From contig DAOUJL010000039.1 of assembly GCA_034422735.1 (NCBI GenBank), positions 100,136 to 164,135 of the forward strand: DNA of 64,000 nt. The letters run 5' to 3'. Below the pieces are notes generated by a model, which worked only from the letters and a program-made list of their open reading frames with translations, was not told the DNA's origin and did no database searches. Of this stretch, positions 14,545-64,000 are shown piece after piece. The translations under genes were made by a program, and so were the position numbers. Origin of the DNA: Dehalococcoidia bacterium. Lineage in GTDB: Bacteria > Chloroflexota > Dehalococcoidia > Lucifugimonadales > CATOSD01. Positions within the stretch are counted from its first letter, which is position 1. Every line of letters starts with the position of its first letter.

Positions 14545-14570
14545 GCGATAGCGTCAGTCTGCGCCCGACC

Positions 14571-15221
14571 TCACCGGGCCAGGTTCTCCGGCGCGTTGGG
14601 AGAGCTCTCGTGGGTCTCGATGAAGTCCACGATCCTGCCTTCGTCGAACTCCTCGAAAGCGTCCAGGAAGGTCCAGGCGGTTAGCGCAAGGCGCGTCGGC
14701 ATGTCGGGGTAGGGCGCGAGCACGACTTTGAGATTCTCCGCGAGCGCCCGGTTGGCTATGCGCTCCAGCTCTTGAAGCAGGTCATCGCAGCCGTCGGGAC
14801 AGTTGTAGTGGATGCCGATGCCGCCGTGTTCAAGGTTGTGAAGGAGATACTCCTCCGCGACGAAGTCGTCGTAAATGCCCCAGTCCACCGGCGCGATGGG
14901 CAGGTTGTAGTGCCAGCCCGACGTCGCGGGAACCGAGTTGTAGGCCGGGTGCTCTTGGCCGGGCACTACGTGGTCGCGGCCCTGCGAGGCGATCTTCTGC
15001 CCGGGTCCATCGGGCACGTTGCTGCCGAACAGGTCGGCGAAGCCGCCGAACGGCACGCTGGGCAGGATGAGCGACAGGATGAATAGCCCGGCGATAAGCC
15101 CAACCGCGGTGAACGCGGCGATGCGCTTGAGGCGGCTCCGTGAGCGCTGCCTGGCGCGCCGCGCCGCCCGCGCCTGCGTCGGCGTGGCCCTGTTTCGAGC
15201 GCGTCGTTGACTTGACGCCAT
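14571..15221 (-). CDS. DUF3105 domain membrane-anchored protein (paralogue)
   Basis: 216 aa with an Arg-rich N-terminus and a TM helix. It shares the motifs of the neighbouring gene (SGWHYN, HNLEHGGIGIHYNCPDGCDDL, LTAWTF). Confidence 0.75.
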   Translation of the reverse strand: MASSQRRARNRATPTQARAARRARQRSRSRLKRIAAFTAVGLIAGLFILSLILPSVPFGGFADLFGSNVPDGPGQKIASQGRDHVVPGQEHPAYNSVPATSGWHYNLPIAPVDWGIYDDFVAEEYLLHNLEHGGIGIHYNCPDGCDDLLQELERIANRALAENLKVVLAPYPDMPTRLALTAWTFLDAFEEFDEGRIVDFIETHESSPNAPENLAR

Positions 15222-15281
15222 GTGTCTCCCTCGTGTGGCCCGGCCCGCTCCGACGCTGCGGACGAACCGGGGCGGATTGGG

Positions 15282-24796: not shown

Positions 24797-24836
24797 GTCC
24801 CTTCCCCCTCGCAGGGGGAAGGTTAGGATGGGGGTG
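24797..24836 (+). repeat. family-A hairpin repeat (copy A4)
   Basis: gtcccttccccctcgcagggggaaggttaggatgggggtg, preceded by the same ctccataa prefix as B2. Confidence 0.9.
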
Positions 24837-24850
24837 AAAGAGAGACAACC

Positions 24851-26056
24851 TTGATAGACCTTCCCTTCCTGGACGAAATCGCCCGCCCCACGCCGTCCCG
24901 CATCATCATGCTCGTCGTCGACGGCCTCGGCGGCGCGCCCCACCCCGATACGCGCAAGACGGAGCTTGAGACCGCGCGCCTGCCCAACCTGGACGCCCTG
25001 GCGGCCCAGAGCGCGACAGGCCTCACCACGCCGGTGCTTCCGGGCATCACCCCCGGCAGCGGACCCGGCCACATGGCCCTGTTCGGCTACGACCCCGTCA
25101 AGTACCTGATGGGTCGCGGCGTCCTGGAGGCGCTCGGCTCCGGCATCGAGATGGCCGCGGGCGACGTCGCCGCGCGCGGCAACTTCTGCACTGTCGACGC
25201 CAGCGGCGTGATAACCGACCGCCGCGCCGGACGCATCCCCACCGCGGAGAGCGCGCCGCTGGTCAAGCTGCTCGACGGCATCGAGGCGCCCGGCGTGGAC
25301 GTGTCCGTGTACCCCGTGCAGGACTACCGCTTCGTCCTGCTGCTGCGCGGCGACGGCCTCAGCGACGCCATCACCGGCACCGACCCGCAGGTGGAGGGCG
25401 CCGCCCCGCTCGAATCGCAGCCGCTCAGCGACGACGCCCGCAAGACCGCCGACGCGGTGAACCGCTTCTCCCGGTCCGCGCGCGCCGTCCTGGCCGGACG
25501 CGAGCGCGCCAACATGGTGGTGATGCGCGGCTTCTCCGGCGTGCCCGACCTGCCGGACTTCGGTGCTTGTTACCGGCTCAACCCGGCCGCCATCGCCGCC
25601 TATCCCATGTACCGCGGCCTGGCGCAGCTCGTGGGCATGAGAATCGTCCCCACGGGCGGCGACTTCGATGCCGAGCTGGAAACGCTGGAGGCCGTCTCCG
25701 CCGACCACGACTTCATCTTCCTGCACTACAAGCCCGCCGACGCCGCGGGCGAAGACGGCGACTTCGACGCCAAGGTGCGCGCGCTGGAGGCGCTGGACGC
25801 CCGCATCCCCCGCCTGCTGGCCACCAACCCCGACGTGCTCGTCGTGGCGGGCGACCACTCCACGCCCGCCATCGTAGTCGGCCATAGCTGGCACCCCGTG
25901 CCCCTGCTCATCCGCTCGCGGTTCACCCACGGCGAGGGCGTCTCCGCGTTCTCCGAGCCTGCCTTCCGCGCCGGCTCCCTCGGCTCGCTACCCGCCGAGA
26001 ACGTCATGCTCCTCGCAATGGCCCACGCCGAAAAGCTCAACAAGTACGGCCCGTAG
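24851..26056 (+). CDS. apgM: cofactor-independent phosphoglycerate mutase, archaeal-type (ApgM family)
   Basis: 401 aa with ...IIMLVVDGLGG...TPNLDALA..., DFIFLHYKPADAAGEDGDF and VVAGDHSTP motifs. Confidence 0.85.
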   Translation: MIDLPFLDEIARPTPSRIIMLVVDGLGGAPHPDTRKTELETARLPNLDALAAQSATGLTTPVLPGITPGSGPGHMALFGYDPVKYLMGRGVLEALGSGIEMAAGDVAARGNFCTVDASGVITDRRAGRIPTAESAPLVKLLDGIEAPGVDVSVYPVQDYRFVLLLRGDGLSDAITGTDPQVEGAAPLESQPLSDDARKTADAVNRFSRSARAVLAGRERANMVVMRGFSGVPDLPDFGACYRLNPAAIAAYPMYRGLAQLVGMRIVPTGGDFDAELETLEAVSADHDFIFLHYKPADAAGEDGDFDAKVRALEALDARIPRLLATNPDVLVVAGDHSTPAIVVGHSWHPVPLLIRSRFTHGEGVSAFSEPAFRAGSLGSLPAENVMLLAMAHAEKLNKYGP

Positions 26057-26065
26057 GGGGTAACC

Positions 26066-27721
26066 ATGAGAGTGGATCAGAGCGACCACGTCCAGCGTGA
26101 TCCAGAAGCCGAGTCTTGGGACGAATTCGTTGCACGCGCCAAAGCGATTTCCTTCAACGATGAACTGATTCAGGGTGACATCATCCCTAAGCTCAGGACG
26201 AGTAAGAGGTTGAATGAGGCGCGCGAAGCGGTACTCAAAGGGAGTCGCGATTGGCCAGATGTCGTTAAGAGGAAGGCAATTCCATCCGTACAGTACCCAA
26301 TCATCAACGTAAATGGCCAGATAGCACTCAGGAATTGGATCGACGCATCCCCAGACGAAGCGCTACAGGCGTTACATGAGATATGGACACCTCGCCGTGC
26401 GTCTATTCCAGAACGGATCCACGCGTTCTGCGAACACTTCCCCCGAAGCATACCGGGAGGCAGTGGAACACGGACAACAACCATCTCACAGCTGCTTATG
26501 GCATTGGACGCTGAACAATATCCGCCGTACAAAACCGAGGCGTTCAAATTGGCATATAGACGTACCGGGTACGAAGTACCACCCCAGCGTGCGAGTGAAG
26601 TTGCTCTGTACGAACATGCGCTTGGCTTCCTCGACCGGTTCATACATGAAGCAATGGTTCGCGGACTGGAGTTGCATCACAGATTGCACGCTCAGTCCTT
26701 AGTCTGGCTTAGCCAGTACCCCGAGAATTGGAATCTCGTAGATGATGAGGAATGTACTTGGTCAATCCCCAGGTCGTCAGATTACCTGACTGGCCTAGAC
26801 GAAGACCTGGACTTACTCGCCGATTACCTCTTCCTTCCCGAGGACTTCCTGCGCGAAATCGAGGCTCTGCTCAAGGACAAAAAGCAGGTCATTTTCCAGG
26901 GCCCGCCGGGCACAAGTAAGACCTACGTCGCGCAGGAGCTGGCCGCCCATCTCGCTGGGTGGGCAGGCCGCGTGACCCTCGTGCAGTTTCACCCCTCCTA
27001 CGCTTACGAGGACTTCGTACAGGGGTTTCGCCCGACGTTGCAGGGCAATCAGGCGGGCTTCGATCTGCGGAACGGACCGCTGTTGCGAGTCGCCGAGCGA
27101 GCGCGGGAGGAACCGGACGAAAAGCACTTCCTCATCATCGACGAGATAAACCGAGGTAACCTATCGAAGGTGTTCGGCGAGTTGTACTACCTTCTGGAGT
27201 ACCGCGACGAGGAGATCACGCTCCAGTACCAGGGGGACCGGGGCAGGAAGTTCTCGCTGCCGCCCAACCTCTACATCATCGGGACGATGAACACGGCCGA
27301 CCGCTCCATCGCAAGGGTGGACCTTGCTCTGCGCCGCCGCTTCTACTTCGTTGAGTTCCATCCCGACGACGAGCCGGTCAAGGGCTTGCTACGCCGCTGG
27401 CTGAGAGACAAAGCTCGCCACATGGAATGGGTCGCCGACGTGGTCGAGCACGCGAACGATCTGCTGGAGCGCGACCGGCACGCCGCCATCGGCCCCAGCT
27501 ACTTCATGGTGAAAGGCGACCTGAACTACGATGTGGTGGAACGTATATGGAAACACAGCGTCCTCCCGTACATCGAGGAATTGCGTTTCGGCGACGCCAA
27601 GGTCAGGGAGGACTTTGATCTCTGGAGACTCAAGAGGCTATCTTCTTCGGCTGCCCAGCCTGAGGATGTCGCGGAAGACCAGAACAGCGGTGATGGTGGC
27701 GCGGACGATGCCCAATCTTGA
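26066..27721 (+). CDS. mcrB: McrB-family AAA+ GTPase (type IV restriction, motor subunit) with unrecognised N-terminal domain
   Basis: 551 aa with Walker A FQGPPGTSKTY, Walker B LIIDEINRGN and the McrB-specific MNTADRS (NxxD-like) and ALRRRF motifs. The first ~270 aa are helical, AT-richer and unlike the E. coli McrB DNA-binding domain. Confidence 0.85.
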   Translation: MRVDQSDHVQRDPEAESWDEFVARAKAISFNDELIQGDIIPKLRTSKRLNEAREAVLKGSRDWPDVVKRKAIPSVQYPIINVNGQIALRNWIDASPDEALQALHEIWTPRRASIPERIHAFCEHFPRSIPGGSGTRTTTISQLLMALDAEQYPPYKTEAFKLAYRRTGYEVPPQRASEVALYEHALGFLDRFIHEAMVRGLELHHRLHAQSLVWLSQYPENWNLVDDEECTWSIPRSSDYLTGLDEDLDLLADYLFLPEDFLREIEALLKDKKQVIFQGPPGTSKTYVAQELAAHLAGWAGRVTLVQFHPSYAYEDFVQGFRPTLQGNQAGFDLRNGPLLRVAERAREEPDEKHFLIIDEINRGNLSKVFGELYYLLEYRDEEITLQYQGDRGRKFSLPPNLYIIGTMNTADRSIARVDLALRRRFYFVEFHPDDEPVKGLLRRWLRDKARHMEWVADVVEHANDLLERDRHAAIGPSYFMVKGDLNYDVVERIWKHSVLPYIEELRFGDAKVREDFDLWRLKRLSSSAAQPEDVAEDQNSGDGGADDAQS

Positions 27722-28943
27722 TCTGACGGAATACGAGCGGAGCCGTCCGTACGGCCTCTCATCAGCCGCGCGAGACGATCTCAAGGCCGCACTTCCATCG
27801 CTCACCGTAGAGCCGGCGGAAGGTGCGGACGCCGCCTACCACGTCACCCCGTCCTCCACCGTCGGCGCGGTGGACATAGACGGCCTGTCCGTCCTCATCC
27901 GGCCCAAGATAGGCATTACCCAGCTACTGTCGCTGGCCTGCTACGCCATGGGCGTGTACAAGCCACAGGAGCAGCACCTGTTCGACTTCGAGGAGGAGGC
28001 CGCGCTCCCCGACACCCTGGCCCTCGCGCTCGCCGCCGCGGCCCGCAGGGCGTTCGCGCGCGGCCTGCTGCACGGCTACCGCACCGAGGAGGAGGCGCTG
28101 TACGCCGTAAGGGGACGTATCCGGTTCGACGAGCAGATCCGGCGCAGGTTCGGCATCCCCATGCCCGTGGAGGTGCGCTACGACGAGTTCACCGACGACA
28201 TCACCGAAAACCGGCTCGTGAAGGCGGCCGTCGCGCGGCTCGGCGAGATGCGACTGCGCTCGTCCCAGGCGCGGCGCGGCCTGGGCTGGACCGCCGCGAT
28301 GCTCGAGAACGTCTCGCTCGTCGAGTACGGCCCGAGAGACGTGCCCGACGTGACCTTTGACAGGCTGAACGACCACTACCGAGGCGTAGTCGGCCTGTCG
28401 CGCCTCGTCCTGCGGCACAGCGCGTTCGAGGCAAAGCGCGGTAAAGTGCGCGCCACCGGCTTCCTGATGGACATGAACACGCTCTTCCAGGAGTTCGTCA
28501 CCGTGGCGCTACGGGAGTCGTTGCAGGTCTCGGCGAACGTATTCTGCTCCGACAGGCAACTCACTGGCAGCCGTCGCATCCACCTTGCAGATAACGACCG
28601 CGTGCGACTCTGGCCCGACCTCACCTGGTGGGACGCCAACACCTGCACGTTTGTGGGCGACGCCAAGTACAAGACGGTAAGTGAGAACGGCGTCCCCAGT
28701 GCGGATTTGTACCAACTGCTGGCCTACGTGACCGCGCTGGAACTGCCCGGCGGACTGCTGGTCTACGCGGAAGGCGAGGCGGACGCGGCCAGCTATCGCG
28801 TCCGCCACTCCGGCAAGCTGCTCGAGATCGCAACGCTGGATCTGTCCGGCACGCTCGACGACGTGCTGGGGCGCGTCTGCCGCGTGGCCGCCAGGATTGG
28901 CGAATTGCGCGATGAGGCCCGGAGGCGCCAGCCCGCCGCGTAA
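27708..28943 (+). CDS. mcrC: McrC-family PD-(D/E)xK endonuclease subunit
   Basis: ATG 27708 overlaps the mcrB end by 14 nt. The protein is 411 aa and carries ...PDLTWWD...FVGDAKYK..., the McrC nuclease motif. Confidence 0.8.
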   Translation: MPNLDLTEYERSRPYGLSSAARDDLKAALPSLTVEPAEGADAAYHVTPSSTVGAVDIDGLSVLIRPKIGITQLLSLACYAMGVYKPQEQHLFDFEEEAALPDTLALALAAAARRAFARGLLHGYRTEEEALYAVRGRIRFDEQIRRRFGIPMPVEVRYDEFTDDITENRLVKAAVARLGEMRLRSSQARRGLGWTAAMLENVSLVEYGPRDVPDVTFDRLNDHYRGVVGLSRLVLRHSAFEAKRGKVRATGFLMDMNTLFQEFVTVALRESLQVSANVFCSDRQLTGSRRIHLADNDRVRLWPDLTWWDANTCTFVGDAKYKTVSENGVPSADLYQLLAYVTALELPGGLLVYAEGEADAASYRVRHSGKLLEIATLDLSGTLDDVLGRVCRVAARIGELRDEARRRQPAA

Positions 28944-29011
28944 CCGCGTCCAGGCAAAATCGCCTATACTGGACGGCGAACCAGCAACATTCGCCTGACA
29001 GGAGTCCCGCC

Positions 29012-29767
29012 TTGCGAACCACCATCATCGCCGGCAACTGGAAGATGTTTACCACCCGACAGGAAGCCATCTCGCTCGTCGAGCAGATGCGCGACGGTCT
29101 CGACGCCGTGGAGGGCGTCACCTCGCTTGTGTGCCCGCCGTTCGTGCACCTGGAGGCCGTCGCGGATGCGCTGCGCGGCACGTCCGTTGCCTTGGGCGCG
29201 CAGAACATGCACCCCGAAAGCTCCGGCGCCTTCACCGGCGAGGTCTCGCCCGACATGCTCGCTGACCTGTGCCAGTACGTCATCCTGGGCCACTCCGAGC
29301 GGCGGGAGCTGTTCGGCGAGACGGACGAGTTCATCAACCGCAAGGTGTTGGCCGCGCTCGCCGCCGGCCTGCGGCCCATCCTGTGCGTCGGCGAGCGTCT
29401 GGAGCAACGCGAGGGCGGGGAAGCGGAAGCCGTCGTCGAGCGCCAGGTAGCCCTCGGACTGGAGGGCGTCGAGGACGCCACGTCGCTCGTCGTCGCCTAC
29501 GAGCCGGTCTGGGCCATCGGGACGGGCAGGGCGGCCACCCCGGACGTGGCGCAGTCCATGATGGCGACAATTCGCGGCGCGCTGGCCGCCCGTTTCGGTG
29601 AGGACGCGGCCGGCGAAGTCCCGCTGCTGTACGGCGGCAGCGTTAATCCCGGCAACGCCGAAGACTACGCCCGCCAGCCGGACGTCAACGGCGCGCTCGT
29701 CGGCGGCGCCAGCCTCGACGCCGAAGCGTTCACGCAGATAGCGCGGCTGGCGGCCCAGGCAGGCTGA
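29012..29767 (+). CDS. tpiA: triosephosphate isomerase
   Basis: 251 aa with IIAGNWKM, ILGHSERR and AYEPVWAIGTG motifs. Confidence 0.95.
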   Translation: MRTTIIAGNWKMFTTRQEAISLVEQMRDGLDAVEGVTSLVCPPFVHLEAVADALRGTSVALGAQNMHPESSGAFTGEVSPDMLADLCQYVILGHSERRELFGETDEFINRKVLAALAAGLRPILCVGERLEQREGGEAEAVVERQVALGLEGVEDATSLVVAYEPVWAIGTGRAATPDVAQSMMATIRGALAARFGEDAAGEVPLLYGGSVNPGNAEDYARQPDVNGALVGGASLDAEAFTQIARLAAQAG

Positions 29768-36684: not shown

Positions 36685-37779
36685 CTAGGTGACTACCTTT
36701 ATGATCCCCGTGTCTCTCAGCGACAGCAGTAGCGCCAGCCCAACGTCTTCGGGACGGTCCCGCGTGTAGTCGATGGTCTCCAGACCCACGAACGGGCTGT
36801 AGGCCTGTGTATCGCTCTCGCGCAATACCACGACCTTCTTGCTGTAGAGGGCGGATGCGGCGCCGACGTGGAACAGCATCCGGTCCGGTCCCTGCCCGGG
36901 TGTGCTCGCCGTCAACACCAGTATGGCCGAGTTGCAGGCCTTCATGGCCTCCGAAACCCTCGGCGACACCGGCTGCGCGCTGTCCGGCTCATCGTCGACC
37001 GAGCTGTAAGGAATATCGAACTCCTGGAGAAGGTCTTTGATGAATTCTACAACTTCCGTTTCGACCTGGTAACCCAGGTACACCCTGCGGGGAGGCGACT
37101 GCTCCACTTCGTGCGCCGGCTCCGCTGGACGCTCCCCTTCCCCGCCGGTGAGAGTGGCGGCGTCCACAGCGGGCTCGGCCTCGGTTGGTGCCGAGGCGCC
37201 GCTCAGATCCACGCTCAGAATCCCGTCCGCATCCGCCGTCAAGATGCCGACGAACAAACCGTTGGCCCTGATCAACTCGACGCACTCCGCGGAAATCGAG
37301 GGGTCGATTCCCCATCCCCGCTCCAGAACGTTGCGCGAGAAGTCGTCCCTGGGCAGCGCGTCGCCGTCCATCTGTTCGTAGAACCCCACAAAGACGTCCG
37401 GGTTACAGGCCGCCTCGATCAGCGCACCGCGGCGCTCCCCTTCCGACATTGGCGACACCGCCGCCTCCCCCAGCGGAGTCAGGCTGATCACTTCGTCGTT
37501 CACGCCGCCCTCGGTCAGCCCATACTTTACCGACGAAGTCAGCTTCATCCTGAACGCGCTGCTTCCCTTCGTGGTTCCCATCGCATCCGCGAGCCGGTCG
37601 GGAGCCAGCGGCTGGCCCCCGTTTACCGCGCGTATTGCCTCCGCGGCCGCAAGGGTATCCTGAAGGCTGTGGGTCGGGTACGGGCGCCTTATGAGCAGTC
37701 TCTTTGGCCTGCGGCCCGTGTCCTCTCCAGTAGACGCCCTCTGTGTCATATCACTCGCATCCGGAGTTATTTCAGCCAT
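36685..37779 (-). CDS. hypothetical two-domain protein: N-terminal wHTH-like region plus C-terminal degenerate TIR-like (PF10137/COG4271-like) domain
   Basis: 364 aa. The C-terminal ~130 aa (RVYLGYQVETEVVEFIKDLLQEFDIPYSSV...CNSAILVLTAS...MLFHVGAASALYSKKVVVLRE...GLETIDY) follows the strand/helix spacing of TIR-like nucleotide-binding domains but lacks the usual HGH and E residues. A low-complexity acidic linker joins the two parts. Confidence 0.35.
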   Translation of the reverse strand: MAEITPDASDMTQRASTGEDTGRRPKRLLIRRPYPTHSLQDTLAAAEAIRAVNGGQPLAPDRLADAMGTTKGSSAFRMKLTSSVKYGLTEGGVNDEVISLTPLGEAAVSPMSEGERRGALIEAACNPDVFVGFYEQMDGDALPRDDFSRNVLERGWGIDPSISAECVELIRANGLFVGILTADADGILSVDLSGASAPTEAEPAVDAATLTGGEGERPAEPAHEVEQSPPRRVYLGYQVETEVVEFIKDLLQEFDIPYSSVDDEPDSAQPVSPRVSEAMKACNSAILVLTASTPGQGPDRMLFHVGAASALYSKKVVVLRESDTQAYSPFVGLETIDYTRDRPEDVGLALLLSLRDTGIIKVVT

Positions 37780-38047
37780 AATTCAAACAATTCAGATTTC
37801 AGAAATACTAACAGAAGCAGCGCCGGTCGTAAAGCTAATTCAGCGCGATTTCAGTTCTCTACGCCGTGTTACAGGCGCAGAAATACGTGCCTGGATCGAC
37901 ATTCAGGCCATCTGGTCGGATGTCACGCGCTGAAGTCGTCGAGAGGCCGCCGTAGTCCCGGGTGCCGCTGGCGCACGACCGAAGACACGGGCCCATATTT
38001 CAGCCGGTGTCGCGCGCGCCGGCGACGCTCTCCCGCGAGCCCCAAAA

Positions 38048-41386: not shown

Positions 41387-41463
41387 GTCCCTGTAGCTCA
41401 GTTGGACAGAGCGGCTGCCTTCTAAGCAGCGGGTCGCGGGTTCGAATCCTGCCAGGGACGCCA
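41387..41463 (+). tRNA. tRNA-Arg (anticodon UCU), genomically encoded CCA
   Basis: Cloverleaf: acceptor GTCCCTG/CAGGGAC, D arm GCTC-AGTTGGACA-GAGC, anticodon arm GCTGC-CTTCTAA-GCAGC, variable GGGTC, T arm GCGGG-TTCGAAT-CCTGC, discriminator G, then CCA. Confidence 0.93.
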
Positions 41464-42379: not shown

Positions 42380-42393
42380 AAAGGGAGATAACC

Positions 42394-43884
42394 ATGGCGA
42401 CACAGAGCTACGCGGGCACCGTGAACGCGCCCGACTTCCCAAAAGGGATGGACTGGCTGAACACCGAGCGGCCCCTCTCACTGGAGGACCTGCGCGGAAA
42501 GATCGTGATCCTGGACTTCTGGACCTATTGTTGAGTCAACTGCATGCACGTATTTCCGCAGTTGCGGAAACTGGAAGAGAAGTACCGGAACGAGCTGGTC
42601 GTGGTCGGCGTGCACTCCGCGAAGTTCACCGCCGAAAAGGATACCGAGAACGTGCGCAAGGCAATCCTGCGCTACGAGATCGAGCACCCGGTAGCCAACG
42701 ACTCCGACTTCGTCATCTGGCAGACCTACACCGTCCGCGCCTGGCCCACGCTCATGTTTATAGACCCGCGCGGCAAGGTCATCGGCAAGCACGAAGGTGA
42801 GATCGTCCTCGAACCCTTCGACAACATCATCGCCGAGATGGTGCGCGAGTTCGACGGCGACGGCCTGATCGACCGCCGGCCCATGACCTTCAAGCTGGAG
42901 AGCGAGACGGAATGGGAGCGGCCCCTGTCCTTCCCGGGCAAGGTGCTGGCGGACGCGGCTTCCGGCCGGCTGTTCATCGCCGACTCCAACCACAACCGCG
43001 TGGTCGTCGCGACGCTGGACGGCGACGTGACCCAGGTCATCGGCAGCGGCGAGCGCGGCCAGGCGGACGGCCCGGCGCACGAGGCCCAATTCGACGACCC
43101 GCAGGGCATGGCGCTCGACGGCGACGTGCTGTACGTCGTCGACACCAAGAACCACTCGATTCGCCGCGTAGCGCTCGACACCGGCCGCGTGGACACCATA
43201 GCGGGCGTTGGCGAGCAGGCGATGCGGTTCCACGCGGGCGGCGACGGGCTGTCCACAGCGCTGAACTCACCCTGGGACCTGGAGCTGCGCGACGGCATCC
43301 TGTACATAGCCATGGCCGGTTTCCACCAGCTCTGGCGGATGCGCCTGGACACGGGCGAAGTCCTGCCCCACGCCGGTTCGGGCCGCGAGAACATCGTGGA
43401 CGGCCCGCTGGGATCAGCGCAGCTCGCCCAGCCCAGCGGCATCGCGTCCATCGACGACAAGCTGTACTTCACCGACAGCGAGACCAGCGCCATCCGCTCC
43501 GCCGACCTGGACACCGGCGGCCGCGTTCAGACCGTGTTGGGCCAGGGGCTATTCACGTTTGGCGACGCCGACGGCGTGGGCGACGCGGTGCGTCTCCAGC
43601 ATCCCATCGGCATAGACGCCGCCGACGGTGTGCTATACATCACCGACAGCTACAACAACAAGATCAAGCGCGTGTACCCCGCGACCCGTGGCTGCATGAC
43701 GATGCTCGGCAGCGGCGGCGCCGGCCACAGGGACGGACCCGCGGGCGAGGCCGAGTTCTACGAACCGTCAGGCGTGAGCGCGGCGGCGGGCAAGCTCTAC
43801 GTCGCCGACACTAACAACCACGCCATCCGCGTCGCCGACCTGGAAACGGGCGACGTGAGCACCCTGGAGCTGCGCGGGCTGTAG
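42394..43884 (+). CDS. thioredoxin-fold (redoxin) plus NHL-repeat beta-propeller protein, probable selenoprotein (UGA-Sec at codon 47)
   Basis: ATG 42394 has RBS agggag. The frame is open to 43884 apart from one TGA at 42532-42534. The translation reads ...[12 protein letters not shown][TGA][17 protein letters not shown]..., so the TGA occupies the first Cys of the family's CxxC motif. NHL-like repeats follow. The track only lists 42544..43884. Confidence 0.75.
42553..42570 (+). promoter_or_regulatory. SECIS-like hairpin downstream of the in-frame UGA
   Basis: A 7-bp stem tttccgc/gcggaaa with apical loop AGTT. The stem starts 19 nt after the UGA, and the loop G/U lies about 27-28 nt downstream. 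Confidence 0.5.
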
Positions 43885-50858: not shown

Positions 50859-51262
50859 GGCGGGCGCAGGGCGGGGCTACTTGACATAAGGTTGTGGGAA
50901 TTGGCCTGAGAGTGGGATGTTTTGTAATATGCGTATGGCAGACTTGAGAGCCAGCGAGAGAGGAAGTCGCGTTAGGGTTGCGCGGCTGGGGTAACTTGGG
51001 ACAGGGGTTTTGGATGATTTGAGGTATCGTAAAGGTCCAAGTAATCACTCTTGCGACTGCGAATGAAAGGGTCCTGGCGACAGCCCAGGGTCTTTTCATT
51101 GGGAACAGGTTCCGGGGGTGCATCCGGTGTCGGCATTCAGCCACCAGAGCGGGGTGGTGGTGGGCCAACAGCCGGTCGGAAGCAGGGGGGGCGAACTGGG
51201 AACCTTGAGACGATTGCTTGAGGATGTAGACATAGCTGACCGGGTGGCAAAAGGAGTACCAA

Positions 51263-52690
51263 TTGACAGCGAAACTAACAGACCTTATCTCCCGCGCCCC
51301 CTGGCGGGAGGCCGTCACCTACCGGGACACCTGGCCCCATGAGTACGTCCTCAGCATAAGGGACGGACAGCGGGAACTGCAGGACGCCATCTACGCCCGC
51401 TTCCTCAACGGCGAGGGCGTGGACTGTCGCTTCTTCAGGGTGAGCAACAAGTACCTGTTCATCAGCGACTTCAAGTACTGGTTCAACAACAAATGGGAAG
51501 GCTTCGACCCAAACGATGATAACGTGATAAACCGCGCCCGCCTGTATCGCGACCGCCGGGACTTCGTGATCCAGCCCGGCGACACGGGAAAGCCGGAGGA
51601 TTATCCCACCAATCCGGCCCACCAGAATCCGATCCAGGACCTCACCAAGCCACAAGAGGCCACCCTGCTCAGTTTCATTGCGCAACGCCATACCATAGGA
51701 CTCGAGGACGTAGCCACGGACGCACTGTACTTCATCCTCTCGCGTTCAGACGCTGCCGGAAAGGCCTTGTCCGAACTGATGGGTGATGAACACGGTCCAT
51801 TACCTATCGCAAAGGCGCAACCCTGGGCGACAGACGCGCGCGGAGCGATACCTGACCTGGCCTGCCTGGACGACGACGACAACCTGGTCGCGCTGATTGA
51901 ATCCAAGTTCTGGGCATCACTAACCCACAACCAGCCCGTCACCTACTGGCAGGGACTTCCCACTCACAAGAGTGCCGTGCTCCTGTTCCTGGCTCCAGAC
52001 TATCGCGTCGACCAAGGGGACCTGTGGGACGAATTGGTAAGTAGGTTGCGCGATGCCGGGCACGAATTGGGCCCTGCCGACAGGCGTCCTGGACTGATTA
52101 CCGCGCAATCCAGGAGCGACCAACGGCGCCTGATGCTAACCACCTGGCAACTGCTTCTTGACAGGATGGCAAAGAGAGCCGGGGAGGATGGCGATACTCA
52201 GGCTTGCTTCGAGATCGCCGAACTGCAAGGACTTGCCGCCAGCGCCATCAAGGGCGACAGACCCACACGCGACGAGAACCTGAAACAACTGATTGCGGAG
52301 TCTGTAAAGCGACTTGAGCAATCGAAATGGGCGGACGCCAGTGGACTGGCTGTCGGACAGGGGGCCGACTTCCACGGAAGATATCTTCGCCTCGCGGGCG
52401 CGCTCGCCTGGCTTGGCATCGATTCCAGAGCCGTGAAAGAGACGGGAAAACCGCTGTGGCTACACTTTTACGAGGAAGGCGCACTCCGCATAAAAGTGAA
52501 CCTGGAACAAGTCCGTAGCCGGCTTGAGGGCCGGTTGGAAACGAAACTCACGTGGCGCAGTGACGACGAGGTATACCTGCCCGTAGAACTGCCACGGGGC
52601 GCCGACCGCGAAAAGACCCTGAACGCTATAGTTGCTCAACTGGAACGCATAGCCCGGCTGATTGATCCCGAGGGTCCAACCTACCGCTGA
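51263..52690 (+). CDS. hypothetical protein with PD-(D/E)xK nuclease-like core
   Basis: 475 aa and AT-richer than its neighbours. The N-terminal module reads WPHEYV...FKYW...INR. The central segment IPDLACLDDDDNLVALIESKFW fits the D...(D/E)xK restriction-endonuclease-fold motif. The C-terminus is helical. Confidence 0.5.
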   Translation: MTAKLTDLISRAPWREAVTYRDTWPHEYVLSIRDGQRELQDAIYARFLNGEGVDCRFFRVSNKYLFISDFKYWFNNKWEGFDPNDDNVINRARLYRDRRDFVIQPGDTGKPEDYPTNPAHQNPIQDLTKPQEATLLSFIAQRHTIGLEDVATDALYFILSRSDAAGKALSELMGDEHGPLPIAKAQPWATDARGAIPDLACLDDDDNLVALIESKFWASLTHNQPVTYWQGLPTHKSAVLLFLAPDYRVDQGDLWDELVSRLRDAGHELGPADRRPGLITAQSRSDQRRLMLTTWQLLLDRMAKRAGEDGDTQACFEIAELQGLAASAIKGDRPTRDENLKQLIAESVKRLEQSKWADASGLAVGQGADFHGRYLRLAGALAWLGIDSRAVKETGKPLWLHFYEEGALRIKVNLEQVRSRLEGRLETKLTWRSDDEVYLPVELPRGADREKTLNAIVAQLERIARLIDPEGPTYR

Positions 52691-57203: not shown

Positions 57204-57251
57204 CCGGAACCCAGGGGCGGCGGTTGGTGCCAAGGAGGACATGGGGGAGAC

Positions 57252-58799
57252 ATGAGGCTCTTCTTCAAATGGCTCGTCTTCGTGATGGTTCCGCGCTGGC
57301 TCATAGTGGCCCTGCGATCCGATATTCCTCGCCGGCCCTCCAAAGACCCCACAAAACACACCGATTACGAAATTGGCTGGGCCCTACAAGACGGCTGGGC
57401 AGAACTGGTAGAGGAGCACGTCCCCGCTTCCGCTGGTGACATCTCCGGCAAGGAAGCCGTGGCGCTCAGGCGAGTCAACATCAACGTAGCCTTCGTCGAC
57501 AGGCGCGAGCACGACGAGGCCATAGCGTTCGTCCGGCCCAGCGTCTCGCTCAGGAGGCTGCCCGACGCCGCGCTGGGGTTGCTCCTGGGCGTGCCGGCAG
57601 AAGCGGCCCGCGCCATCGACCAGGCTATGCGCGAAGAAAACCCCGGCCTCATCTCGCCGATGCACGTGCTTGTTTCGTGCCACTTCCGGCAGGGGCGATG
57701 GCGTCCGATAGTAGTGGACTTGGACGAGCTGGCATTCGAAGCTGAACGGCAGTCGCTAATGGCCGAAGTGTACAAGCGGCAGACCACCTGGAAACAGTCC
57801 GCTGCCCTGGATTCCGAATTGTACGTAGCAATTGGGGAATCGGTCCAGATTCAGACCGACCTGAAGGAGCCGCCGTTCGCCGTGATGGTGCTAGGCCCGG
57901 CCGAAAGCGTGGACGACAAGACAGTTCGCGTGCCCGTCCGCATCACCGCGATTGTCCCCAGATGGTCGCTATCGTCCATCGGCGGCTCTTTCCTGACATC
58001 TCTGCAGACCGAGCCGGGCGAGCGCGGCGAGTCTGTCAGCTGGTCGAATCTCGACACTTCGCCCTCACCCTACTCTCCAGGATTCGAGGACGTCATCCTG
58101 GTCAAAGGAGGCTCGCATGAGATTTACCTGTACTTCCGCGCCGATGACGATAGCCGCGAGACGACGGTCCCGCACCTACCCTTCACGGAGATGCACTACT
58201 TCGACGGCTCAGAGCAGATAATCGCGTCCGATCTGACCCGAACCTCGCCCATTCCGGAGCGCGCCAGGTTAGACGCCGGAAGCCTAGGTGCCCTATGGGA
58301 CGACCCGCCCGTCGAGGCCGTCGGCGCCAGGCTGAGCGGCGGACAGTGGGGGCACATACCCACTCCCCCGAAAGCCGGGATAGGCGACACGGTCAGGGCC
58401 ACGACGTTCACCGACTGGCCCAATCCCGGACGTGACAAGCCCTCTTACGACATCACCGTCCTGGGCTTGCCGCAGGTCTTTGACGACCGCGCCGTCCGCC
58501 TCCACCTTCGAATCACGTCACTGGAGGACGGGCTCTCGTTACGTGCGCTGGAGTTCCAGCTATCGTCCGGCCCCGACACATACGGCCGCATACATCACCT
58601 GTGGGAATCGCGTCCGCTGTACGAGGAGAACCCCAATCTGCCCGACTCCCTGCCTGACGCCGTGCTGGAGGCAGGACAGACCGCCGAAGGCCACGTCTAC
58701 TTTCCCGCCCCGCACAGCGAGCACGTTCCGCCCGGGACAGCACTCACCATCCTCTGGCACGGCGACACCCTGTTCGAGCAGCCAATCACCTTGGCGTGA
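57252..58799 (+). CDS. hypothetical protein with N-terminal hydrophobic segment and two DUF4352-like beta-sandwich repeats
   Basis: 515 aa with an internal duplication: ...FAVMVLGPAESVDDKTVRVPVRITAIV... and ...YDITVLGLPQVFDDRAVRLHLRITSLE.... Confidence 0.45.
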   Translation: MRLFFKWLVFVMVPRWLIVALRSDIPRRPSKDPTKHTDYEIGWALQDGWAELVEEHVPASAGDISGKEAVALRRVNINVAFVDRREHDEAIAFVRPSVSLRRLPDAALGLLLGVPAEAARAIDQAMREENPGLISPMHVLVSCHFRQGRWRPIVVDLDELAFEAERQSLMAEVYKRQTTWKQSAALDSELYVAIGESVQIQTDLKEPPFAVMVLGPAESVDDKTVRVPVRITAIVPRWSLSSIGGSFLTSLQTEPGERGESVSWSNLDTSPSPYSPGFEDVILVKGGSHEIYLYFRADDDSRETTVPHLPFTEMHYFDGSEQIIASDLTRTSPIPERARLDAGSLGALWDDPPVEAVGARLSGGQWGHIPTPPKAGIGDTVRATTFTDWPNPGRDKPSYDITVLGLPQVFDDRAVRLHLRITSLEDGLSLRALEFQLSSGPDTYGRIHHLWESRPLYEENPNLPDSLPDAVLEAGQTAEGHVYFPAPHSEHVPPGTALTILWHGDTLFEQPITLA

Positions 58800-61708: not shown

Positions 61709-61835
61709 CTGCTCACCTCCCTGTCCAGTGTCAGCGTTGCCGCCAAGTCTAGCAGGTTTCCCCGCCCGGCGTGCGTCTCCCGGAACGCGGCCGTGTTGTG
61801 CTAGAGTAACTGAGCCAGTCCAGGCGAAACCACCG

Positions 61836-62484
61836 ATGGGGGGATAGTATTCGCGTCCTGAGCGGCCAGCGCGTCGCCGTATACATAGACGGCTTTAACC
61901 TCTTCTATGGGCTGAGAGACAAGCGCTGGCGGCGCTACTACTGGCTCGACGTGTACAAACTCGCGCAGAATCTGCTCCGCCCGCGTCAGACGCTCACTGC
62001 CGCCAGGTACTTCACCGCCCGCGTCTACCCCGACGCCGGCGACCCCGGAAAGGCCGCCCGTCAGAACGCCTACCTGGAAGCGCTGGGAACCATCCCCGGC
62101 CTGAGCATCCACTACGGTCACTTCCTGCCCAGGACCCGGCGCTGCCCCAACTGCGGCGAGCTAACGCAGTCCTACGAAGAAAAGATGACCGACGTCAACA
62201 TCGCCGTCGAAATGGTCCGGGACGCGCACGACAACCTGTTCGACGCCGCCATAGTGGTCTCCGCCGACAGCGACCTCTCGCGCCCCATCACCGCCATCAG
62301 AGAGCGGTTCCCCGAAAAGCGCGCAATCGTCGACTTCCCGCCCAGCCGCTTCTCAAGCCACCTCAGGCAAATAGCAGGCGCGGCGTTCTTCATACGACGC
62401 GATACATTGAGAGACAGCCAGTTGCCCGAACACATTACAAAACAGGATGGAATCGTCCTCTCGCGCCCCTCATCATGGGATTAG
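61836..62484 (+). CDS. NYN (LabA/DUF88-like, PIN-related) domain protein, N-terminus disrupted at a G6 run or using a non-canonical start
   Basis: The frame is open from 61810 and encodes ...RVLSGQRVAVYIDGFNLFYGLRDKRWRRYYWLDV..., which includes the essential first Asp motif, but it has no ATG/GTG/TTG before GTG 61951. An ATG at 61836 is 1 nt out of frame across the run atgggggga. Removing one G gives MGDSIRVLSGQRVAVYIDGFNL.... Confidence 0.6.
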
Positions 62485-62651
62485 AGGATTCCTGAAAAAA
62501 CGAGACGCCCCCATATCTCTATAGGGACGTCGGCCCAGCGATACTCTCACTGGGGGGGTACATACACTATAATGCGCCCCCTATCGCGCTGTCAACACAT
62601 CGTCGCCGCAATTTCGCGCTTGGCGTGGCGAAAGTCAGGACTGCTGGCAGT

Positions 62652-62680
62652 TTGTCATGGTCATTGCCAAAGGCCATAAT
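62652..62680 (+). promoter_or_regulatory. sigma70-like promoter candidate for the AbrB-like/DUF262 operon
   Basis: TTGTCA (62652-62657), a 17-nt spacer, then CATAAT (62675-62680), about 43 nt upstream of ATG 62723. Confidence 0.45.
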
Positions 62681-62722
62681 GTAAGTCCAACGGCCACTCC
62701 TCAAGGAAACGGAGCGTTTTCA

Positions 62723-62980
62723 ATGTTCGAATCCACCATAGCCGTGAAGGGCCAGACCACGCTGCCCAAAGACGTCAGGGACTCGCTGGCGGTGAAGGCA
62801 GGGGACAGGGTCCGCTATGTCATTCTGGACGAGGGAGTGCTGTTACTGCCCGTGCGGTCCACCAGCCGGCGGTTCGGTAGCCTCAAGTACGACGGCCCGC
62901 CCGTTAGCCTGGAAGATATGGACCGTGCCATCGCAGAGGGGTCAATCTTGGTAGAGAATCCCGGAGGCAATTCGTCATGA
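62723..62980 (+). CDS. AbrB/MazE/SpoVT-family antitoxin-like DNA-binding protein
   Basis: ATG 62723 (the track ORF starts at 62657). MFESTIAVKGQTTLPKDVRDSLAVKAGDRVRYVILDEGVLLLP is a swapped-hairpin barrel motif. 85 aa. The stop overlaps the next start (ATGA). Confidence 0.75.
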   Translation: MFESTIAVKGQTTLPKDVRDSLAVKAGDRVRYVILDEGVLLLPVRSTSRRFGSLKYDGPPVSLEDMDRAIAEGSILVENPGGNSS

Positions 62981-64000
62981 AGGACTCACAGAAGCCCGAC
63001 CACGTGAGCCTCGCCAACATGGTTGGTCGTCTGCGTGAAGGACGATACGTGATCCCCGATTTCCAGCGTGCCTTTGAATGGGAGCCGGGGGACATCAGGG
63101 ATCTAATGAGTTCCATCTTCCGCGACTACTACATCGGTAGCCTTCTTCTTTGGAAGGGCAAAGACGAGAACTTTGAGGTGCTTTCCTGTGAGCCGATCTA
63201 TGGCTATGAGGGAGGTGACGGCCGAAACGACATCGTCTTGGACGGTCAGCAACGTCTCGCGGCCATGTATTACGCTTTCATGGCACCCGACAAGCCCGCA
63301 CCTAACCGCCGTAATCGATACCTCTATTTCATCAAGGTCGACCGCTTCATAGACGAGACTTACGATGAGGCCTTTGCATACGACTGGACTAGCAAGGGGC
63401 TGAATCTGCTGAGTGATCGGACACGCCAGTTCGAGGAGCACATGTTCCCGCTCTCGATCGTTGGAGCAGAGGGCTGGGAACTCCCCAACTGGGTACAGGA
63501 TTATGAGGAGCACTGGCGTGAAGCGGCGGAGACACTTGAAGGATCTGAGGCCGAATCTGCCGCGTTCCATGCGGAAAACGCCAAGAAGTTTGGCGAGCAC
63601 CTGAGAGATATCACCCAGCAGTACCAGATATCGTATATCGAACTGGACCGGGATCTCGAACTCGACAAGATTTGCGATATCTTCACACAGATTAACAGCC
63701 GGGGCGTTAGACTCGACATCTTCGACCTCCTCAACGCCCTCTTAAGGCCGAAGGAGATTCGACTCAGGCAGGAACTGTGGAGAGACGCATCTCCTCGTCT
63801 GGAGTTTGCCGAAGCGGGGCGGATGAACGTGTACGTGCTTCAGGTGATGTCCATACTTCGCCAGGCGTACTGTTCCCCAAAGTATCTGTATAACCTTGTA
63901 CCTGGAAGCCAAAGGCAGGTACGGGGACCGGACGGCAAACTACGGACAGAGGTGCTTGTTTCAGACCCTGTCGAATTCAAGAATCTTTGGCATGAGGCGG
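62977..64000 (+). CDS. DUF262 (ParB-like/GmrS-like) domain protein, partial (runs off window)
   Basis: ATG 62977 has a GGAGG RBS. MKDSQKPDHVSLANMVGRLREGRYVIPDFQRAFEWEPGDIRDLMSSIF...IVLDGQQRLAAMYYAF...FTQINSRGVRLDIFDLLNA carries the DUF262 signatures xPxFQRxxxW and DGQQR. The frame is open through 64000. It is missing from the ORF track because no stop lies in the window. Confidence 0.85.
   Translation, partial: MKDSQKPDHVSLANMVGRLREGRYVIPDFQRAFEWEPGDIRDLMSSIFRDYYIGSLLLWKGKDENFEVLSCEPIYGYEGGDGRNDIVLDGQQRLAAMYYAFMAPDKPAPNRRNRYLYFIKVDRFIDETYDEAFAYDWTSKGLNLLSDRTRQFEEHMFPLSIVGAEGWELPNWVQDYEEHWREAAETLEGSEAESAAFHAENAKKFGEHLRDITQQYQISYIELDRDLELDKICDIFTQINSRGVRLDIFDLLNALLRPKEIRLRQELWRDASPRLEFAEAGRMNVYVLQVMSILRQAYCSPKYLYNLVPGSQRQVRGPDGKLRTEVLVSDPVEFKNLWHEA

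Follow-up and report, generated by a model that had tools for sequence, protein, structure and literature searches.

The stretch of DNA that we analysed (64 kb in length, hereafter the window) belongs to a 100-kb metagenome scaffold, about 80 kb of which (positions 6.7–86 kb) was read. Its forward strand carries a gene of 496 codons that runs from an ATG at 42394 to a TAG at 43882–43884 and is preceded, across a 6-nt spacer, by a Shine-Dalgarno-like AGGGAG (42382–42387). The frame 42394–43884 is broken by a single TGA at codon 47 (42532–42534), and both a public gene caller and the ORF lister divide the gene into an ORF of 46 amino acids and one of 446 amino acids starting at an internal ATG (42544–42546). 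This codon, Met51 of the full-length frame, appears to be a miscalled start lying within a conserved CINCMH motif, and its position is equally invariant in full-length homologues that encode cysteine at codon 47 (Cys forms, as opposed to the TGA forms). By manual count from the table, truncation precisely at Met51 affects 59 of the 120 homologue clusters listed. The preliminary description of this locus had proposed that the same frame is open from the ATG at 42394 behind an agggag ribosome-binding site and that gene callers would truncate the protein; all of its coordinates proved exact, and the public call shows the predicted truncation. No other in-frame TGA with coding potential on both sides was found in the 64 kb, the remaining cases being adjacent genes in the same frame. 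One 510-aa cluster member (P0245) was considered as a read-through form and rejected as a C-terminal frameshift artefact.

Read through the TGA, the gene would encode a two-domain protein. Residues 35–129 (42496–42780) match a Thioredoxin (Trx)-like domain of the Thioredoxin_8 or TlpA-ResA-DipZ type (Pfam PF13905, model positions 1–94 of 94, E 4.8e-18), the 46 codons located 5′ of the UGA (42394–42531) supplying the initial strands of its fold, as far as DFWTYC; the protein also scores on AhpC-TSA and Redoxin. Residues from about 176 to 495 (42919–43878) correspond to a six-bladed NHL-repeat β-propeller (Pfam NHL, E 4.8e-28) and align to the SOQ1 and NHLRC2 constructs that consist of the propeller alone (7djm and 6g7w respectively). 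The closest structures found with phmmer were the lumenal part of Arabidopsis SOQ1 (7djj, E 3e-132) and human NHLRC2 (6gc1, E 6.7e-114), which align from residue 9–11 to residue 492–495 and place DFWTYCCINCMHV opposite DFWTYC-U-VNCMHV of the window protein. The homology is end to end over both domains and includes the same CCINC-type motif, the difference being a predicted selenocysteine (Sec) for the first Cys of CxxC. This is the layout of the NHLRC2/SOQ1 family, i.e. a Thioredoxin_8-type domain with CC(I/V)NC (here with Sec for the second Cys) followed by an NHL propeller. W117-P118-T119 is invariant among homologues, and Pro118 is probably the cis-proline of the Trx fold; the spacing between U47 and P118 (71 residues) is close to that between C90 and P163 of NHLRC2 (73 residues). 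Both hallmarks of a Trx-fold oxidoreductase, a CxxC-type pair and a cis-proline loop, are thus present, the cis conformation itself being predicted.

The family's C-terminal domain (CTD) was not found. The window protein stops at residue 496, directly behind the propeller, and is thus a CTD-less two-domain variant that, unlike SOQ1, has no CTD Cys pair to exchange electrons with the Trx domain. Cys forms of 620–712 aa carry an extra domain with two Cys (alignment columns 540–687). In a further difference from SOQ1 and NHLRC2, no HAD domain, transmembrane helix or signal peptide was detected, so the window protein is presumably cytoplasmic.

The UGA occupies the site of the first Cys of CxxC in homologues (DFWTYC-C-INC), and both flanks are conserved. 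We retrieved 79 species-level genomes via peptide motifs lying at a distance of some 150 to 370 codons from the TGA, and found TGA at this very codon in 48 of them and TGC or TGT in the other 31. The UxxC motif would read C46-U47-V48-N49-C50, and its last residue (TGC, 42541–42543), the putative resolving cysteine, is Cys in all Sec- and Cys-form genomes compared. Through the CC(I/V)NC motif, Sec47 matches Cys431 of SOQ1 and Cys90 of NHLRC2, while Cys50 matches C434 and C93 respectively. Several points that the preliminary description had made are borne out by these comparisons: the motif DFWTYCCINC that it gave for Cys-containing members is real in full-length homologues, the alignment shows TGC or TGT where the TGA was said to replace the N-terminal Cys of CxxC, and the supposed complete redoxin N-terminus is reflected in a Thioredoxin_8 match that covers the whole model across codon 47.

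A trivial origin of the interruption, as a pseudogene or as a sequencing or assembly error for TGC or TGT, would entail no recoding and either no protein or a truncated one. One base separates TGA from TGC, a metagenomic homologue (P0008/L364) has TGC within the same flanks, and public gene callers do take the TGA as a stop. This explanation is nevertheless vanishingly improbable, and cross-species conservation has effectively refuted it. A search of the genome collection with a DNA pattern combining the TGA and the hairpin described below matched at least 120 further stretches, in addition to the 48 species-level genomes with TGA at the same codon. Counting that of the window, 49 TGA-form coding sequences were compared, each with exactly one internal stop and no frameshift, and these three observations together make the TGA more than a chance event. 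Within the TGA forms, the 46 codons before the TGA show a mean pairwise amino acid identity of 0.69 (0.61 in the rest of the gene) and an entropy of 0.62, 0.34 and 1.33 bits at first, second and third codon positions respectively, and the segment aligns with the N-termini of Cys homologues; by these measures it is under protein-level purifying selection. A dedicated hairpin, moreover, goes with the TGA.

The pattern matches, many of which are long-read complete chromosomes, came from Chloroflexota, Gemmatimonadota, Actinomycetota, Rokubacteria/Methylomirabilota and Fervidibacter among the matches listed. The TGA form is present in the complete chromosomes OZ245405.1 (protein 91% identical), OZ220672.1, OZ251547.1 and Fervidibacter sacchari PD1 (NZ_CP130454.1) and in bins of the samples ERZ23495130 and ERZ23495173, and is also carried by Dehalococcoidia bacterium UBA1141 (L277). 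A cassette, UGA-RUN-AAC-UGY-N12-SYG-CAG-UUG-CG, is nearly invariant across Chloroflexota, Gemmatimonadota, Actinomycetota, Rokubacteria/Methylomirabilota and Armatimonadota. It is common to a small single-domain Trx-like protein as well, TGA forms of which were found in Binatia, Methylomirabilota and Rokubacteria and resemble the DipZ-type domain.

The candidate SECIS hairpin (42553–42570, forward strand) lies within the segment that encodes F53-P-Q-L-R-K58 and consists of UUUCCGC (42553–42559), the loop AGUU (42560–42563) and GCGGAAA (42564–42570). It starts about 18–19 nt 3′ of the TGA, with the loop beginning 25 nt after it. Bacterial SECIS (bSECIS) elements are characterized in a 2026 review by a small apical loop in which U follows G, a distance of 16–37 nt between loop and UGA, and an energy of −7.5 kcal/mol or lower. 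We applied these rules by hand, and the hairpin conforms to them: the loop has four nucleotides, with G second and U third, the stem comprises 7 bp, the spacing is 25 nt and the energy is −8.8 to −9.3 kcal/mol. The 18-nt hairpin stands out when folded alone (−8.8 kcal/mol, z = −3.65), and contexts of 44 to 75 nt fold no more stably than shuffled sequence (z about 0). RNAalifold predicted the identical seven pairs across the alignment, in which 97.3% of cells are paired as against 34–70% in controls slid along the sequence, and 61 cells carry double changes, compared with 17.2 ± 3.2 in shuffles (none of 500 reached the observed value). Pair 28–45 occurs as UA (55), CG (32), UG (6) and AU (3), and pair 30–43 as UA (76), CG (16) and GC (5). 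The preliminary description had noted a 7-bp hairpin, tttccgc-AGTT-gcggaaa, 19 nt after the TGA, had called it SECIS-like and had suggested a covariance analysis across orthologues: the hairpin and its bSECIS character hold, and the analysis, now run, points to selection at the RNA level.

It might be argued that the hairpin arose incidentally from selection on the peptide FPQLRK, with no RNA function and with read-through achieved by other means. FPQLRK is indeed highly conserved in TGA forms, and the four loop-proximal base pairs show little or no variation, although part of this invariance in the set from the TGA-plus-hairpin pattern search is imposed by the search pattern. Against this, compensatory changes keep the pairs at the cost of the amino acids (Phe to Leu together with Lys to Glu or Gln), as in the codon pairs TTT..AAA, CTC..GAG, CTG..CAG and ATC..GAT. 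Synonymous sites are frozen as well: across the 49 unbiased TGA forms, Pro is encoded by CCG in 48 of the 48 sequences that have Pro (one has Val), Gln by CAG and Leu by TTG in 100%, and Arg by CGG in 96%, TTG being a rare Leu codon in a gene with a GC3 of about 90%. Other conserved Pro, Leu and Arg columns vary, and codon entropy is above zero in each of the further conserved columns, 71 of them four-fold and 24 six-fold. Cys forms, in contrast, have IPDLKK in place of FPQLRK with mixed codons at the hairpin sites, and typical ones fold no hairpin; the exception is the metagenomic TGC form P0008/L364, which keeps an intact relic hairpin and is one nucleotide away from the Sec form. A mere by-product is thus extremely improbable, and the pattern of substitution indicates that the hairpin is under RNA-level selection.

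Most copies of the hairpin are without a bulged U, and one (L072) has it. Three other structures were considered and rejected: a longer SECIS, the pairs beyond the 7-bp stem not being conserved; a small GUUG/CAAC hairpin over the UGA itself, which is lost in orthologues with TGC-TGA; and a CCGCAGTTGCGG look-alike in a selA locus (L169), which sits in a non-coding context and is consistent with chance.

The proximity of an ATG 9 nt after the TGA, with the hairpin just downstream, could also be read as two products, a 46-aa peptide and a 446-aa NHL protein started at 42544, the hairpin serving coupling, re-initiation or mRNA stability. Termination at UGA is moreover what bacterial selenoprotein mRNAs undergo under selenium limitation. 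Such a division would, however, cut the Trx fold between its first strand and helix α-1 and part the two redox residues, and no purine-rich ribosome-binding site precedes 42544 (bases ttgttgagtcaactgc). Since Met51 shows the same invariance in the Cys forms, whose synthesis yields a single chain, it is better regarded as a motif residue than as a start signal, and the absence of the hairpin from typical Cys forms ties that structure to the TGA rather than to the Met. We consider two separate products highly unlikely, and the in-frame 'stop' very probably encodes the active-site selenocysteine of a Trx-like/NHL-propeller protein.

A UGA that is translated might still specify a standard amino acid: Cys, via a tRNA-Sec-like tRNA(Cys) or as thiophosphate-derived Cys-tRNA(Sec), or else Trp or Gly, via a suppressor or an altered code. 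Cys would be chemically acceptable at position 47, as in the Cys forms, tRNA-Sec-like species with unusual 8/4 structures occur in Chloroflexi and other bacteria, and some of these tRNAs are charged with Cys. However, TGA is the normal stop of 21 of the 52 other gene-like ORFs in the window, and the genetic code is therefore standard; the TGA studied here is the only in-domain one in 64 kb. The conserved SelB-type hairpin, with its canonical loop, spacing and stem, also argues against a standard amino acid, as does the presence in Chloroflexota of selA, whose product makes Sec and not Cys, beside selB and tRNA-Sec(UCA). To insert Cys, a TGC codon would cost less, and so elaborate a module would not have been kept in several phyla. 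Decoding as a standard amino acid is on these grounds very unlikely.

As for the Sec machinery, we found none of selA, selB, selD and tRNA-Sec on the approximately 80 kb inspected of the 100-kb scaffold (window included). Within the window, ARAGORN and Rfam returned a tRNA-Arg only and no tRNA-Sec, and inspection of the six-frame ORF translations by eye, with Pfam scans of selected ORFs, revealed no sel genes; with Chloroflexota SelA and SelB as tblastn queries, the window and 188 TGA-side loci gave only a weak match to a GTPase (HflX). Two selA scans of the genome collection gave, among the matches listed, no assembly in common with the TGA-form genomes, and a SelA profile search of the protein database gave no match to the TGA-bearing chromosomes among the matches listed. 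A search seeded with three Chloroflexota SelA proteins, on the other hand, yielded 80 loci that were kept, all with selA and nearly all from Chloroflexota genomes; tRNA-Sec(UCA) lies nearby in 11 of the 60 selA loci scanned, and in one locus (L199) selB adjoins selA. BSepDB, which admits only species with at least two Sec-pathway genes, lists UBA1141 with 49 selenoprotein genes. The machinery of the source organism aside, the lineage (Chloroflexota) decodes Sec, and selA, selB and tRNA-Sec are common there.

We therefore regard the gene, with a high degree of confidence, as a bacterial NHLRC2/SOQ1 homologue without the C-terminal domain in which UGA is decoded as Sec. From the established bacterial Sec system we infer the mechanism, as regards both SelB binding and the actual insertion of selenium. 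As the ribosome nears the UGA, SelB carrying Sec-tRNA(Sec) would bind the hairpin with its AGUU loop and, competing with release factor 2, deliver Sec. The product would have a U47-V-N-C50 redox centre at the start of helix α-1, facing the propeller as described for NHLRC2, with Sec47 as the attacking nucleophile and Cys50 resolving the selenenylsulfide. For the biochemical substrate we argue by analogy with SOQ1: most likely the propeller holds oxidised proteins that the enzyme reduces, perhaps at disulfides or, through a thiol/selenol relay, at methionine sulfoxide. Neither NHLRC2 nor SOQ1 has classical insulin-reductase activity, and thiol-disulfide exchange and methionine-sulfoxide-reductase activity have been shown for SOQ1.

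Among catalogued selenoproteins with UxxC, the Prx-like thiol:disulfide oxidoreductase (PF00578), the thiol-disulfide isomerase-like family (cd02966), the Redoxin family protein (PF08534) and thioredoxin share with the window protein the fold class, the N-terminal Sec nucleophile and the type of SECIS within the ORF. These families are single-domain, however, and none is described with an NHL propeller. The 2026 selenoprotein catalogue has no NHL entry at the level of family descriptions, at which the comparison was made, and sequences such as these might already be filed under the generic class Redoxin family protein (representative HEU0032618.1). None of the NCBIfam selenoprotein models reaches its cut-off on the window protein, and our literature search returned no paper linking NHL, NHLRC2 or SOQ1 to selenocysteine. 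The closest single Trx-like domain is the C-terminal one of Mycobacterium tuberculosis DipZ (2hyx, E 1e-23), whose motif SCINC shows the same xCINC; in DipZ, though, the domain has Cys instead of Sec, is fused to a CcdA-like domain in the membrane and has no propeller. The hairpin resembles the bacterial SECIS of the Escherichia coli fdhF type, which likewise lies in the ORF just after the UGA and has a small loop with G then U. Bacterial SECIS elements are generally dissimilar between genes (2026 review), whereas the sequence of the core found here (CCGCAGUUGCGG) hardly varies between two protein architectures and among at least five phyla.

The window thus almost certainly encodes a selenoprotein of the ordinary bacterial kind, in a family without a published Sec form in the literature searched. 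We suggest, more tentatively, that the Sec orthologues of NHLRC2 and SOQ1 may make up an uncatalogued selenoprotein family, a proposal for which the odds fall somewhat short of even. If so, the invariant cassette would point either to an ancient Sec state that gave rise to the Cys forms or to the spread of a ready-made recoding module, and the family's substrate could be sought with a naturally hyper-reactive enzyme. The practical consequence concerns annotation: the 59 truncated clusters among the 120 closest listed lack the active site, the first 46 codons being called an orphan ORF, which amounts to a systematic annotation error throughout a lineage widespread in soil and sediment.

NHLRC2 is essential in mammals and mutated in FINCA disease, and SOQ1 controls photoprotection in plants, but redox catalysis by their CCINC motif is debated and classical reductase assays were negative. 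A conserved natural Sec at the CCINC cysteine would provide independent evolutionary evidence for a redox nucleophile at that position, and the Sec/Cys pair would mark Cys90 of human NHLRC2 (Cys431 of SOQ1) as a redox-active catalytic nucleophile. The near-invariant SECIS shared across phyla would allow the recognition of SECIS by SelB to be studied, on a clean set of sequences, beyond Proteobacteria and Firmicutes, and the bacterial Sec forms, one of them in the cultured Fervidibacter sacchari PD1, would be tractable models for the family.

The gene at 42394-43884 (+ strand) starts with an ATG at 42394, preceded by AGGGAG at 42382-42387, and ends with a TAG at 43882-43884, the frame being broken by a single TGA at 42532-42534. 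Re-reading of the sequence upheld this interrupted frame as put forward in the preliminary description, and the AGGGAG and the inverted repeat tttccgc/gcggaaa (42553-42559 and 42564-42570, + strand; loop AGTT at 42560-42563) were likewise as described. The truncation expected there from standard gene callers is indeed found: both in the ORF listing and in the public annotation, a 46-aa ORF and a 446-aa ORF beginning at the ATG at 42544 stand in place of the whole gene. The window is part of a 99,953-bp metagenome scaffold (ENA ERZ23495130 scaffold_739). The one RNA gene detected across the window, a tRNA-Arg(TCT) at 41387-41463, precedes a TenA/PQQC-family gene and is situated some 0.9 kb upstream of the selenoprotein gene. 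A near-identical strain from a sister sample (ENA ERZ23495173 scaffold_4771) differs in local gene order through strain-level indel variation: additional G3P_acyltransf and acetyltransferase genes are present, a BrnT toxin is inserted and the rhomboid gene is missing.

With cysteine placed at the TGA, Pfam Thioredoxin_8 matched in full (model positions 1-94 of 94) on residues 35-129, spanning codon 47 unbroken, and was followed by NHL repeats. The best matches among solved structures, the lumenal Trx-like/NHL region of Arabidopsis SOQ1 (7djj; E = 3e-132; residues 11-495) and human NHLRC2 (6gc1; E = 6.7e-114; residues 9-492), covered nearly the entire protein. Both contain the atypical motif CCINC, the counterpart of C46-U47-V48-N49-C50 in the window protein, which places the TGA at SOQ1 C431 and NHLRC2 C90 and, as read from the alignment, at the N-terminal residue of CxxC. 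C431-C434 is the redox pair of SOQ1, and the NHLRC2 motif (residues 89-93) faces the cleft with the propeller. The window protein has no signal peptide and lacks the C-terminal domain present in eukaryotic SOQ1/NHLRC2 and in acidobacterial Cys forms of 620-712 aa. In NCBIfam no family scored over its cut-off for this protein, and there is no model for an NHLRC2/SOQ1-type selenoprotein.

The same truncation occurs in other genomes: 59 of the 120 listed homologue clusters are 440-453 aa long with 89-90% query cover, and every one examined begins MH(V/I)FPQL. The motif DFWTYCCINC, given for the Cys members in the preliminary description, was present in full-length homologue matches. We then fetched 80 species-level genome loci with the peptide motifs D[TS]YNNK[IV]K and DSNH[NH]R[IV][VL]V, both roughly 150-370 codons away from the TGA site, and the codon was legible in 79 of them. 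It was TGA in 48 (Dehalococcoidia, other Chloroflexota and one Dormiibacterota) and TGC/TGT in 31 (Blastocatellia, Latescibacterota, Armatimonadota and others), the TGA thus standing in for the N-terminal cysteine of CxxC. Exactly one internal stop was present in each of the 49 TGA-form coding sequences, among them that of the window. Across these TGA forms the 37 codons before the TGA (codons 10-46) showed a pairwise identity of 0.69, against 0.61 for the remaining gene, with codon-position entropies of 0.62, 0.34 and 1.33 bits, and are thus constrained at least as much as the rest. A sequencing error or a pseudogene is ruled out by the conserved TGA, the single internal stop and the upstream constraint taken together, which also imply that the upstream piece is translated in-frame. 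The window uses the standard genetic code, with TGA as the stop of 21 of its 52 gene-like ORFs, and no further in-domain TGA was found in the whole 64 kb.

The published bacterial SECIS model sets four requirements, among them a stem of 4-16 bp, a UGA-to-loop distance of 16-37 nt and a minimum free energy no higher than -7.5 kcal/mol. The window hairpin, described beforehand as SECIS-like, agrees with this model (loop AGUU, 7-bp stem, 25-nt spacing; -8.8 kcal/mol and z = -3.65 alone, -9.3 in a 44-nt context), and its folding energy in longer contexts was unremarkable (z about 0). Thermodynamics by itself proves nothing here; the evolutionary evidence, frozen codons and covariation in the TGA forms, does. 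Among the 49 TGA forms, gathered without reference to the hairpin region, the hairpin proline codon was CCG in all 48 with proline (valine in the other one), and codon use was similarly fixed for Gln (CAG, 100%), Leu (TTG, 100%), Phe (TTT, 98%), Arg (CGG, 96%) and Lys (AAA, 87%). Of the other conserved columns, 71 four-fold and 24 six-fold, not one had zero codon entropy (minimum 0.87 and 0.54 bits, respectively). At the homologous sites of the 31 Cys forms codon use was free to vary: proline was encoded by CCC (15), CCG (7), CCT (7) or CCA (1) and leucine by CTG (13), CTC (9), TTG (5) or others; the peptide there reads IPDLKK, as against FPQLRK in TGA forms, and no hairpin was predicted in typical Cys forms.

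Over 109 distinct TGA-form sequences 97.3% of the stem cells were paired, although in the 60-odd sequences that came from a pattern scan the query itself fixed the loop and the four inner pairs, a bias absent from the covarying pairs and from the 49-sequence codon test. Both sides had changed in 61 cells, a count that none of 500 column shuffles reached (17.2 +/- 3.2), and pairing fell to 34-70% when the partner was shifted by one to three columns. The three distal pairs alternate among UA, CG, GC and AU, giving the stems TTTCCGC..GCGGAAA, CTTCCGC..GCGGAAG, CTCCCGC..GCGGGAG, CTGCCGC..GCGGCAG and ATCCCGC..GCGGGAT, and RNAalifold independently recovered the same seven pairs. These switches preserve pairing in the RNA at a cost to the protein sequence, changing Phe to Leu/Ile and Lys to Glu/Gln/Asp.

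Scanning 185,579 species genomes with the pattern TGARTNAACTGY-N12-SYGCAGTTGCG gave at least 120 matches. Every one examined was a DFWTY[CGA]-U-(I/V)NC module, and most among the matches listed were Trx+NHL proteins of 475-545 aa. They occurred in Chloroflexota (Chloroflexia, Thermomicrobiales, Anaerolineae and Caldilineaceae included) and, outside it, in Gemmatimonadota, Actinomycetota, Thermoleophilia, Rokubacteria and the cultured Candidatus Fervidibacter sacchari PD1. The closed genome of the latter (NZ_CP130454.1; TGA form at 2503-2537 of locus L270) encodes a stronger hairpin (CUGCCGC-AGUU-GCGGCAG, -14 to -15 kcal/mol), and this strain is a candidate experimental system. At least five short, single-domain thioredoxin-like ORFs (VEFWTYG-U-INCKNVIPQLR; loci L249, L272, L284, L307 and L310, from Binatia, Methylomirabilota, Rokubacteria and one unclassified bacterial MAG) carry the cassette of UGA plus CCGCAGUUGCGG, a second protein architecture on the recoding module shared with the Trx+NHL proteins.

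Neighbour-joining placed the 31 sampled Cys forms in a single clade, with the 74 Sec forms outside it, so that changes of state look rare in this set, whose sampling is biased. A metagenomic Cys form (P0008; L364 500-560, ENA ERZ24794648 NODE_152769) has TGC followed by an intact relic hairpin, tttccgcagttgcggaaa, the same as the window's SECIS. This Sec-to-Cys neighbour, one nucleotide away, is an apparent very recent switch and shows directly that the position accepts a Cys-like residue. The adjacent gene encodes a Thioredox_DsbH-type thioredoxin-domain protein.

No Sec machinery was found in the window or the readable scaffold (about 80 kb), as expected when some 80 kb of a genome of 3-4 Mb is sampled. 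With a generic alignment of SelA (E. coli and Aquifex, checked against PDB), selA was found in at least three Chloroflexota genomes, and a Chloroflexota SelA alignment found at least 80 selA loci, nearly all Chloroflexota or Dehalococcoidia. Of 60 loci scanned with ARAGORN, 11 had a tRNA-Sec(UCA) no more than 10 kb from selA, and Dehalococcoidia selA loci such as L162-L172 had none at that distance; in one locus (L199) selB, with SelB winged-helix domains, adjoins selA. The Chloroflexota tRNA-Sec genes near selA (L180, L185, L191, L195, L199-L201, L212, L215, L217 and L218) are strikingly alike (GAGTCCCGGTGGGCTTCGCGGACTTCAAATCCGT ... GGTGGGTTCGACTCCCAT), several with an encoded CCA end. Among the matches listed, the selA and TGA-form sets had no assembly accession in common. 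The sole same-genome link comes through the literature: Dehalococcoidia bacterium UBA1141, which has a TGA form (L277), is listed with 49 selenoprotein genes in BSepDB, a database open only to species in which two or more of SelA, SelB and SelD occur.

Standard bacterial Sec insertion is the best-supported reading of the UGA. SelB carrying Sec-tRNA(Sec) would bind the AGUU hairpin 18 nt past the UGA and, so bound, decode it as Sec, yielding a putative selenenylsulfide-forming centre, U47xxC50, at the Trx/propeller cleft. In SOQ1 the Trx domain performs thiol-disulfide exchange, and methionine sulfoxide of the SOQ1 target is reduced by the lumenal region; NHLRC2 is a proposed redox enzyme with a conserved cleft. 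By analogy, the presumably cytoplasmic Sec form without the C-terminal domain probably reduces oxidised protein substrates held by the propeller.

Elsewhere in the window, two ORFs with AAA_5 (McrB-like) and McrBC domains (26057-28943), flanked by a phosphoglycerate mutase gene (24827-26056) and tpiA (28916-29767), look like a restriction-type defence insertion dividing a glycolytic gene cluster; the first has a GC3 of 0.69, against about 0.9 in its neighbours. The right end, 61810-63999 and the scaffold beyond (L363 6945-9758), probably carries a small island of defence or toxin-antitoxin genes, which encode an NYN-domain protein, a MazE/PrlF-like antitoxin and a GmrSD_N (DUF262) protein; the last ORF is low in GC (GC3 0.64). 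Adjacent paralogous ORFs at 13924-14553 and 14571-15281, whose translations have in common the C-terminal block HNLEHGG.G.HYNCP.GCDDL, appear to have arisen when a gene for a secreted or membrane-anchored protein was duplicated in tandem. The long gene-like ORFs 51236-52690 (atypically low GC3, 0.70), 57204-58799 and 36685-37782 (484, 531 and 365 aa) had no Pfam match at E <= 1e-5.

UxxC thioredoxin-fold selenoproteins with an in-ORF SECIS are among the commonest bacterial selenoproteins, and the mechanism is nothing new. The 2026 catalogue and the other literature searched make no mention of an NHL-, NHLRC2- or SOQ1-type selenoprotein, although it might already be covered by a generic entry of the kind 'Redoxin family protein, PF08534, UxxC'. 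The value of the finding lies in correcting a widespread truncation in annotation, in the tie to NHLRC2 and SOQ1 catalysis, and in a SECIS that is unusually sequence-invariant and common to several phyla.
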